From IMG/VR virus record IMGVR_UViG_3300046799_000011, positions 47,670 to 111,669 of that record: a DNA stretch of 64,000 nucleotides. The stretch is one strand, 5' to 3'. The notes under the pieces were generated by a model that saw only the letters and a list, made by a program, of their open reading frames with translations, did not search any database and was not told the origin of the DNA. The first letter of the stretch is position 1. Every line of letters starts with the position of its first letter. The stretch comes from a virus. Made by a program: the position numbers and the translations under genes. Shown one piece after another: positions 4,229 through 57,913 of the stretch.

Positions 4229-5227
4229 TCAGCGGTACTGAATCATACTATATGCATTCAGTACCGCTGATTGAATATCACTGTTAGTTACGCCCTCAGT
4301 TCCCAGGTCTTTTGCTTCTGGGATATGAGAATAGTTAATAAACTTTATTCTTCTACCGCTGCGAAGATATCGCTCCCGCAAGGAACGCATTTTATTCAGA
4401 CCCACAGTGTCATTGTCCAGGGCAAAGATTACTATCTCTGCTCTGTCGAATAGAAGATCTAGTTGTTTGTCAGAAATCTGTACGCCGTAGGAAGATACAG
4501 CGCCAGAGATCCCAGCAGTATAAAGGCGTAGACAGTCCAACGGACTTTCCAGGACGATTGCTGTTGATCCACGTAGAACCTCAATTCCAAATAGTGTGTC
4601 ACCCTTGGGAACTCTTCCCGGCTTATTACAAAACCAGCCTTCTCCCTTTTCCTGGTACCCCCATAGCTCTCCTGTATAAGGAGAACGTATGGGGAGTATC
4701 CAGTTATTCTTCTTCGGATCCCATAGGACTCCGTAGTGACTTACAGCTCCCGCAGAAACTCGTCGTCCGTCCAGTGCCGAGTGCGGTGGAGCATCGAAGA
4801 GCGCCAGTCGTGCTTCATTCCACGGCTGTACCCAGTCGTCTCCTTGGAGACCACCAGTCCGCCCTTCGGGATCCGCCAGAATTCGTCGTAGTCGAGAGAC
4901 TCCACCGCGACTACGGACCCATTGTTCTGCATCTGATCGATCATATCCTTTAACCTCCTGGACTAGGTAAACGAATGAACCCTTGAAACCACAACTGAAA
5001 CAACTGTGTTGGCCTGTTTCAGTATTAATACTCCACTTATCAGGCCGGTTATTGTACTTTCCCCGCCTTTCAAAGTGGCCTGGACACAGAGCCCAAGCTT
5101 CCTCATGAACAATGCGGGCTACTTCGATGCCCAGTTCCTCAAGACAAGCTAGCACATCCCCCGGAATAGGGGTACCTGTACTAGCCCACCCATTAGAAAC
5201 CGGAGAACGCTGTCCCGTATTCTTCAT
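4229..5227 (-). CDS. DNA primase (zinc finger + TOPRIM); start uncertain
   Basis: CPGH...CFSC zinc finger; ESPLD and ALDND TOPRIM motifs; adjacent to helicase. Confidence 0.9.
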   Translation of the reverse strand: MKNTGQRSPVSNGWASTGTPIPGDVLACLEELGIEVARIVHEEAWALCPGHFERRGKYNNRPDKWSINTETGQHSCFSCGFKGSFVYLVQEVKGYDRSDAEQWVRSRGGVSRLRRILADPEGRTGGLQGDDWVQPWNEARLALFDAPPHSALDGRRVSAGAVSHYGVLWDPKKNNWILPIRSPYTGELWGYQEKGEGWFCNKPGRVPKGDTLFGIEVLRGSTAIVLESPLDCLRLYTAGISGAVSSYGVQISDKQLDLLFDRAEIVIFALDNDTVGLNKMRSLRERYLRSGRRIKFINYSHIPEAKDLGTEGVTNSDIQSAVLNAYSMIQYR

Positions 5228-52962: not shown

Positions 52963-53042
52963 ATTGTGGAGAGCGCTTAAGGGACGCTCTATAAGATAAC
53001 ACCATACGGGCCTCCCCGTATAGCCACCCTTGTTACGTGCTG

Positions 53043-53223: not shown

Positions 53224-53301
53224 AGCGCACAAGCGGAATCGAACCGCTAACCAACAGTTTTGCAGACTGTCTCTGAATCCCATCAGATTAGGTTTATGCG
53301 C
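53224..53301 (-). tRNA. tRNA-Cys(GCA), atypical D region
   Basis: ACAGT-CT GCA AA-ACTGT; long connector before D stem. Confidence 0.8.
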
Positions 53302-53305
53302 ATTG

Positions 53306-53383
53306 TGGATCTGCTCGGAATCGAACCGAGGTCCGAAGAAGTTCCGCGTGCGGCCTTAATCTTCGTCGAAACCTACCAAACCC
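53306..53383 (-). ncRNA. minimal tmRNA-like RNA (tRNA-like domain only)
   Basis: 5' GGGTTTGGTAGGTTTCGAC and 3' GGACCTCGGTTCGATTCCGAGCAGATCCA match tmRNA termini; G3:U70, A73; only about 30 nt between them. Confidence 0.8.
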
Positions 53384-53387
53384 AGAG

Positions 53388-53460
53388 TACGCAAGGTGGG
53401 ACTCGAACCCACGATAGCCACTTTGTAAGAGTGGTGCTTTGGCCGCTAAGCTACCCGCGC
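53388..53460 (-). tRNA. tRNA-Val(TAC)
   Basis: CCACT-CT TAC AA-AGTGG. Confidence 0.92.
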
Positions 53461-53641: not shown

Positions 53642-53719
53642 TACCTTGGACAGGATTCGAACCTGCATACTCCATTACGCTTTTAATGACCGGTTAGAAG
53701 CCGGGGGCGATACCAAGGC
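53642..53719 (-). tRNA. tRNA-Arg(TCT)-like, lacking D arm, with long variable arm
   Basis: Acceptor GCCTTGG/CCAAGGT; CCGG-CT TCT AA-CCGG; GCAGG TTCGAAT CCTGT. Confidence 0.7.
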
Positions 53720-55532: not shown

Positions 55533-55600
55533 TGGAGCCACGGGGAATCGAACCCCGCTGGAGTTGCTTGCAAAGCATCTGTGTCACCTTGACCAGCCCC
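55533..55600 (-). tRNA. tRNA-Ala(TGC), shortened D arm
   Basis: G3:U70; TGC anticodon; 68 nt. Confidence 0.8.
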
Positions 55601-57808: not shown

Positions 57809-57913
57809 TTGGTAAGTCGTAGCATCCCGGACTCAAACCGGGGCGACGAATCTGCGGACTCGTACTCTATCCCTGAGTTAATACTACGAGACCTTACGAT
57901 CTCGACTTACCAA
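57809..57913 (-). ncRNA. tRNA-like RNA embedded in an extra three-way junction
   Basis: TTGGTAAGTC/GACTTACCAA outer stem, GAGATC-GTAA-GGTCTC hairpin, tRNA core with abnormal anticodon loop. Confidence 0.65.

Follow-up and report, generated by a model that had tools for sequence, protein, structure and literature searches.

The window analysed here, a stretch of 64,000 nucleotides, makes up the right-hand 64 kb of a complete IMG/VR phage genome of 111,669 bp, which has direct terminal repeats; BRock, LuckySocke, Alone3, GiJojo and pSt2308, all Streptomyces phages, are relatives of this phage. Its tRNA genes form a same-strand array, comprising 25 genes called by ARAGORN and several atypical ones, and inside the array lies a 78-nt sequence (G1 to A73; positions 100975-101052 of the whole genome) that reads as a tmRNA reduced to its tRNA-like domain (TLD), hereafter the mini-tmRNA (Table 1). 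It is the sole match to the Rfam tmRNA model in the complete 111,669-bp genome. The tRNA-Val gene on its upstream side adjoins it in all five BRock-like relatives too; the Cys-type gene on the other side has an enlarged D region and was not called by ARAGORN.

Table 1. Features of the mini-tmRNA locus, in window coordinates.
Feature	Position	Strand	Evidence
TLD-only mini-tmRNA, mature length	53306..53383	-	RF00023 54.2 bits, model 1-374; R1 95.6 bits
Acceptor stem, 5' strand GGGUUUG (G1, G2, G3)	53377..53383	-	7/7 pairs with 53307-53313
Acceptor stem, 3' strand CAGAUCC (U70, C71, C72), and discriminator A73	53306..53313	-	Sequence and conservation
D-loop analogue GUAGGUUUCGA, unpaired, no D stem	53366..53376	-	Aligned to tmRNA consensus GGaUUCGAC
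Helix 2 (P2a), 5' strand CGAAGA(U)	53359..53365	-	Partner strand 53334-53340
Helix 2 cap: A-rich internal loop and CCG-CACG-CGG mini-hairpin (53344-53353)	53341..53358	-	Element common to DS6A and BRock-like phages
Helix 2, 3' strand (U)UCUUCG, then tmRNA GGAC motif	53331..53340	-	Model alignment and covariation
T arm CUCGG-UUCGAUU-CCGAG	53314..53330	-	Model alignment; 99-100% of cells paired, 3-4/5 pairs compensatory
tRNA-Val(UAC), 3-4 nt upstream of mini-tmRNA	53387..53460	-	ARAGORN; Rfam 64.6 bits
tRNA-like gene, anticodon GCA (Cys), starting 5 nt past A73	53224..53301	-	Rfam tRNA 40.4 bits
Terminator-like hairpin after two tRNA-Ser genes	53001..53024	-	Consensus scan only, weak

The acceptor stem is built of the pairs G1-C72, G2-C71, G3-U70, U4-A69, U5-G68, U6-A67 and G7-C66, and is followed by an 11-nt D-loop analogue (G8 to A18) whose last two bases are the G-A of the 'GAC' motif known from tmRNA; the tmRNA motif GGUUUCGAC covers nt 11-19, and its final base, C19, starts helix 2. 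Alignment with the model consensus gives the features expected of a TLD, namely the D-loop analogue without a D stem (GGNUUCGAC), the T arm (GGUUCGAUUCC), and, where helix 2 starts, G-A pairs formed with GGAC; an acceptor stem of 7 bp containing G3:U70, together with A73, supplies the alanine identity elements. The gene does not encode CCA; A73 is followed by CAA. Helix 2 has 6 bp (CGAAGA/UCUUCG), and its strands are only 20 nt apart, the CCG-CACG-CGG hairpin included, so that there is no space for a tag frame. No mRNA-like domain (resume codon, tag frame, stop codon) was found in the mini-tmRNA, ARAGORN reported no tag peptide, and no sequence is left in the 78-nt RNA for the pseudoknots PK1-PK4. 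Re-reading of the minus strand thus gave the same sequence as an earlier note on this DNA, and the 20 nt measured between the helix 2 strands agree with its description of a helix closed by about 20 nt with a small hairpin, leaving no room for pseudoknots or a tag ORF.

The Rfam tmRNA model (RF00023; gathering threshold, 47 bits) matches 53303-53383 on the minus strand with 54.2 bits over model positions 1-374, including both termini, with 14 nt standing in for 306 internal model positions. The score drops to 45.7 bits if the search covers only 91 nt, and since ordinary tRNA-Ala genes reach 37.7-42.2 bits with RF00023, the score by itself is a modest discriminator. No tRNA or tmRNA was called at the locus by ARAGORN, either in the window or in the whole genome; no match to the tRNA model RF00005 was found there at E<=10, in a loose first look that weak matches could escape, and no match to the mitochondrial tmRNA model RF02544 at E<=10 in the whole phage genome. 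These results side with the earlier note, which had read the D-loop analogue, GGAC, G3:U70 and A73 as a tmRNA signature and had named a better score as an ordinary tRNA as grounds for refutation. A covariance model built in this study (R1) gives the mini-tmRNA 95.6 bits, the RNA of mycobacteriophage DS6A 61.6 bits, and tRNAs at most 27 bits. Because the Rfam score is modest and the single-sequence fold is not unusually stable in relation to shuffled sequences (z = -1.31), the case for the mini-tmRNA rests on comparison. This comparison, which provides the decisive support, confirms at the level of sequence that the locus encodes a real TLD-only mini-tmRNA.

ARAGORN found no tRNA-Ala in the whole phage genome and several of the phage tRNAs are atypical, as might suit a reading of the RNA as a decoding tRNA of unusual form, such as an aberrant tRNA-Ala with an intron or an enlarged anticodon loop; but this reading is practically negligible, given that the RNA has no D stem, that a 7-nt anticodon loop is impossible between the helix 2 strands, that neither ARAGORN nor RF00005 recognizes it, and that the conserved GGUUUCGAC and GGAC are specific to tmRNA. 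A separate candidate for a compact tRNA-Ala(UGC), which the phage may possess, also speaks against it. This candidate is a 68-nt tRNA-like RNA at 55533-55600 on the minus strand, with the acceptor GGGGCUG/UGGCUCC (including G3:U70), A73, a short D hairpin and the loop UUUGCAA with anticodon UGC; it is missed by ARAGORN and scores 16.8 bits with the Rfam tRNA model and 23.6 bits with R1. In view of this candidate, the lack of a tRNA-Ala was dropped as an argument. Two further atypical tRNA-like genes were noted on the minus strand, one at 57818-57887 (Rfam tRNA, 38.2 bits), with an anticodon loop of 6 or 8 nt, and one at 53642-53719 (29.3 bits).

The genes of the array are tightly packed, from which it is inferred that the mini-tmRNA is co-transcribed with the array and processed like a tRNA. 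The hairpin at the end of the two tRNA-Ser genes possibly terminates a putative Val / mini-tmRNA / Cys / Ser / Ser unit; in the promoter and terminator consensus scan, site counts were not above shuffled expectation. Open reading frames on the plus strand across the array region are not credible, as they overlap tRNA genes. No SmpB, RF-1/ArfB domain, Pth or AlaRS was found to be encoded by the phage, nor was an integrase. Lacking SmpB, AlaRS, ArfB and Pth of phage origin, the mini-tmRNA must act through host factors.

Copies of 77-78 nt (G1-A73) were found between tRNA-Val and tRNA-Ser genes in LuckySocke, GiJojo, pSt2308, BRock and Alone3, with flanks that cannot be aligned. Four of these copies are intact and score 57-64.5 bits with RF00023. 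The Alone3 copy (contig L005, 1476-1552) scores 36.8 bits and has two T-stem mismatches (GCGGG vs CCCAG) and an altered D-loop, GGCACGAC; it may be decaying or recombinant, and the copy in LuckySocke, a close relative of Alone3, is intact. Because the Alone3 copy is damaged, the gene may be dispensable in the laboratory. The earlier note had proposed a search of related phages and had allowed that relatives might carry a full tmRNA at this locus, in which case the gene would be a recent deletion relic. All five BRock-like phages carry same-size syntenic versions, none has a full tmRNA at the locus, and the tmRNA model has one match genome-wide; to judge from these sequences, the mini-tmRNA is not a deletion relic.

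Related RNAs were sought with two patterns. Pattern 1 consists of the inner hairpin and the T loop and leaves the acceptor stem unconstrained; it found 45 IMG/VR contigs, which, together with the window and the cultured relatives, yield 35 distinct RNAs of 77-82 nt, all with 7/7 acceptor pairs. It also found minis in six bacterial assemblies (Patescibacteria, Saccharibacteria, Pseudonocardia with two copies, Sideroxyarcus, Poriferisphaera, and an Actinomycetota MAG), and a normal full-length tmRNA is present as well in each of the five such assemblies that were searched for one. In Pseudonocardia sp. (G003), the two minis (C99:7886-7968 and C30:36375-36457) differ from each other and occur besides a normal tmRNA of 397 nt; presumably they are located in prophages. 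Pattern 2 ignores the inner hairpin and found at least 120 viral contigs in IMG/VR; among the matches listed, there are 56 distinct minis of approximately 69-85 nt, confirmed with R1. A further version, with a compensated inner hairpin, occurs in Stenotrophomonas virus Jojan60. TLD-only RNAs are thus common in phages, and mostly unannotated.

The DNA fetched around 60 of 85 loci contains no tRNA gene besides, which argues that the mini-tmRNA is selected in its own right. The ORFs within 4 kb of 45 loci were compared all-against-all by BLASTP and then with Pfam, and no protein neighbour conserved across lineages was found among them; only lineage-specific replication and structural genes were present, with no integrase and no translation factor. 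Two different minis, at 1565-1638 and 5111-5183 on the minus strand, lie 3.5 kb apart on one 17.9-kb viral contig (L009). The RNAs of L008-L011 form a subtype in which the T stem is bulged, the inner hairpin is missing and CCA is encoded. Two jumbo-phage contigs of 332 and 235 kb (L012, 1200-1268; L013, 6611-6679) share an identical stretch ending in GGGGACCGCGGUUCGAAUCCCGGUAGACUCCACCA, with no obvious 5' acceptor partner close by; it is possibly the 3' part of a tmRNA that is permuted or split. Several weak matches to the tmRNA model were noted in genome G002.

Model R1 was built from eight gap-free 78-nt sequences, and the remaining members of the family were aligned with it, since MAFFT alone misplaced the 5' acceptor strands. 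Alignments fitted to R1 are biased toward the structure of the model, and RNAalifold was also run on an unfitted MAFFT alignment with flanks, where it predicted the same four helices. Among the 40 distinct sequences of the hairpin-pattern set, 97.5% of cells form a standard pair, compared with 70.5% after shuffling (0 of 500 shuffles reached the observed value); for the 56 distinct sequences of the hairpin-independent set, the figures are 97.2% and 68.2% (again 0 of 500). When the partners were slid by 1-3 columns, only 35-51% of cells in the 40-sequence set and 39-51% in the 56-sequence set were paired. Compensatory changes were found in 16 of 22 pairs in each set; in helix 2 all 7 pairs are compensatory across the family, and in the hairpin-independent set all three pairs of the inner hairpin covary. 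The acceptor was not set by the search pattern, and G1:C72, G2:C71 and G3:U70 are unchanged in all 40 sequences of the first set, whereas 13-16 of these sequences have both partners replaced at pairs 4-6. Taken over both sets, G3:U70 shows no or almost no variation. A73 is A in 40/40 by a boundary rule that demanded it, one locus without A73 (L050) having been left out. Positions G12, G17, A52 and C53 are invariant (alignment A5). A G:U wobble that is never 'repaired' is a mark of selection for recognition by AlaRS, as in the identity of tRNA-Ala and tmRNA. The pattern of substitution indicates that selection maintains both the fold of the mini-tmRNA and its alanine identity pair.

These observations also bear on whether the RNA could be a non-functional remnant, either of a decayed phage tmRNA or of a host tmRNA piece from an integration site. 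The attachment sites of temperate phages often consist of a 3' piece of tmRNA, and pieces of this type do occur among the viral contigs: in three IMG/VR contigs (L156, L158 and L159), a 3' piece of an ordinary tmRNA has kept the segment GACUAYGCAUGUAGA and has no pairing 5' acceptor strand (4-5/7); these are probably attachment-site fragments of temperate phages and not minis. The apparent damage to the Alone3 copy would likewise be in keeping with a remnant. The mini-tmRNA, however, has both halves of the TLD with 7/7 pairs, whereas the attachment-type fragments lack the 5' strand and keep the segment mentioned; the compensatory changes in its pairs contradict decay, and the phage has direct terminal repeats, no integrase, and no relative with a full-length gene at the locus. 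A remnant is therefore very improbable.

The window RNA belongs to a class that has already been described and is widespread. Its founding member is the 'TLD only' (CDS-less) tmRNA published for mycobacteriophage DS6A (Hudson, Lau and Williams 2014, PMC4131195; PMC11915505), located at JN698994 28478-28557 (tmRNA Website tmID 11587); in the literature searched, DS6A was the only phage named as bearing a TLD-only tmRNA. Both RNAs are phage-borne, 78-80 nt long, and provided with G3:U70, A73, the D-loop analogue, helix 2a, GGAC and the T arm, and neither has pseudoknots or a tag frame. They also share an inner element, GAAAaCCGCACGCGGuAC in DS6A and AAGGCCGCACGCGGAAC in the window phage, with GAAAgCCGCAYGCGGaAC common to DS6A and the BRock-like phages, which marks the two RNAs as homologous. 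By eye, this element gives the impression of similarity to the conserved strands of helix 2 in actinobacterial tmRNAs of full length, but it is too short for a significance test. The window RNA shares the hallmarks of the DS6A type: it is carried by a phage, falls within 75-85 nt, links the two halves of its TLD through helix 2a with a short cap, and keeps its fold by compensatory change. The two phages differ in that DS6A is a temperate siphovirus of 60 kb with a solitary gene, whereas the window phage is a virulent-looking BRock-like phage of 112 kb with terminal repeats and a gene within a tRNA array; the host genus differs also, and with RF00023 DS6A scores 43.2 bits as against 54.2 bits. 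Specific to the window are the syntenic copy of the BRock lineage in a tRNA array, the inner hairpin of DS6A type, and the damaged copy in Alone3.

Canonical tmRNA (ssrA, RF00023) has the same tRNA-like domain as the mini-tmRNA, with the same alanine identity elements and the same basal G-A pairs in helix 2, and both presumably use SmpB, EF-Tu and AlaRS; but the mini-tmRNA is short by approximately 290 nt (PK1-PK4, resume codon, tag ORF and stop codon), and therefore cannot perform the mRNA half of trans-translation. Full-length tmRNAs, known from mycobacteriophages of cluster C (e.g. Bxz1) and Streptomyces phages of cluster BE1 (PMC5764925), are similarly ssrA relatives encoded by actinophages beside a large tRNA set, but they keep the tag-coding domain and are detected by ARAGORN, neither of which holds for the mini-tmRNA. 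CDS-less tmRNA is known from jakobid mitochondria, and forms of approximately 65 bp from plastids (PMC11915505); these too are tmRNAs cut down to the tRNA-like part (RF02544 for the jakobid form), but they are organellar, AT-rich, and of independent origin.

Trans-translation is the main pathway of ribosome rescue and quality control in bacteria, and the presence of the SmpB-, AlaRS- and EF-Tu-binding part of tmRNA in many unrelated phages points to a common, little-studied form of tampering with it. On balance we lean towards the view that the phage mini-tmRNA is functional and would serve as a charged decoy against host tmRNA, lowering ssrA tagging. It would be cut from the array transcript like a tRNA, a host enzyme would add CCA, and host AlaRS would charge it with alanine by way of G3:U70 and A73. 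Host SmpB and EF-Tu would bind the product, which, having no resume codon or degradation tag to supply, would compete with the tmRNA of the host for SmpB and for ribosomes that have stalled; in this way trans-translation and ssrA tagging in the host would be damped or short-circuited during infection. In the literature (PMC4131195, citing Mao et al. 2009; PMC11915505, which says likewise for the DS6A form), a TLD-only molecule is described as a strong inhibitor of tmRNA in E. coli, perhaps through titration of SmpB, and PMC4131195 states that a chargeable RNA was not required for this inhibition. Pure titration of SmpB therefore leaves the invariant G3:U70 unexplained, and this invariance points to a step after charging, with real scope for a charged RNA that enters the ribosome.

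Such a step would be provided by tag-less productive rescue, the main rival reading, which, like the SmpB sponge also raised in the earlier note, has already been discussed for the 'TLD only' RNA of DS6A (PMC4131195, PMC11915505). The alanyl-mini-tmRNA, with host SmpB and EF-Tu, would enter stalled ribosomes and accept the nascent chain, and the resulting peptidyl-RNA would be resolved by a host hydrolase (Pth after drop-off, or ArfB) or by a further round of rescue; ribosomes would be recycled during infection, and phage proteins would not be marked for degradation by ClpXP or Lon. The constancy of the alanine identity pairs (G3:U70, G1:C72 and G2:C71 in 40/40) makes charging seem to matter, CDS-less tmRNAs in the mitochondria of jakobids and in some plastids are believed to act in this way with SmpB (PMC11915505), and stalling at rare codons would be favoured by the approximately 28 phage tRNA genes and by a G+C content far below that of Streptomyces (52% in BRock, PMC7453282). 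Productive rescue is nevertheless rather unlikely: an RNA without resume and stop codons has no built-in means of peptide release, no ArfB/RF-1 or Pth domain was found in the phage, truncated proteins that had been rescued would be of little use to it, and the experiment described in PMC4131195 is reported to show inhibition and not rescue.

A broader proposal, which we consider doubtful, is that phage mini-tmRNAs are not passive SmpB sponges but active charged substrates that would enter stalled ribosomes and re-route rescue, either by adding an untagged alanine that would spare phage proteins from ssrA proteolysis or by repeated rounds on an mRNA-less A site that would build short alanine tails. 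On this proposal the RNA must be charged to work, since its alanine identity is invariant, and phages would have a widespread strategy for seizing ribosome quality control.

The target of a decoy might also be something other than SmpB, with the shape of tmRNA or tRNA-Ala being presented to a host nuclease or defence sensor, interfering with RNase R control, or affecting AlaRS. The location of the mini-tmRNA among phage tRNAs and near genes of RNA repair or quality control (thioredoxin; in BRock, an RNA ligase) accords with this, and there are known phage proteins that weaken defence nucleases by their handling of fragments of tmRNA and tRNA (PMC11662646). Such a target is quite improbable, in that the conserved features all fall in the part of tmRNA that binds SmpB, AlaRS and EF-Tu, and no conserved defence or counter-defence gene was found near the loci. 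For the charged-decoy reading and its competitors, the cultured BRock-like phages, which grow on Streptomyces lividans, are a tractable system, and Streptomyces mutants of ssrA and smpB have been published (PMC2635970).

Mini-tmRNA genes are largely invisible in current annotation, ARAGORN having overlooked 82 of the 85 loci. The RNA is unannotated in LuckySocke, pSt2308, BRock and Alone3; the BRock genome paper reports tRNAs only (PMC7453282), and the published BRock annotation has no tmRNA entry. On a 3-kb scan, the BRock copy (L004, 1501-1578) received the ARAGORN label 'tmRNA*', the flag for a permuted form. In GiJojo (L002), a 'hypothetical protein' CDS, gp44 (1500-1742), has been drawn over the mini-tmRNA (1502-1582), with its start placed right on the RNA, and is probably a mis-annotation.
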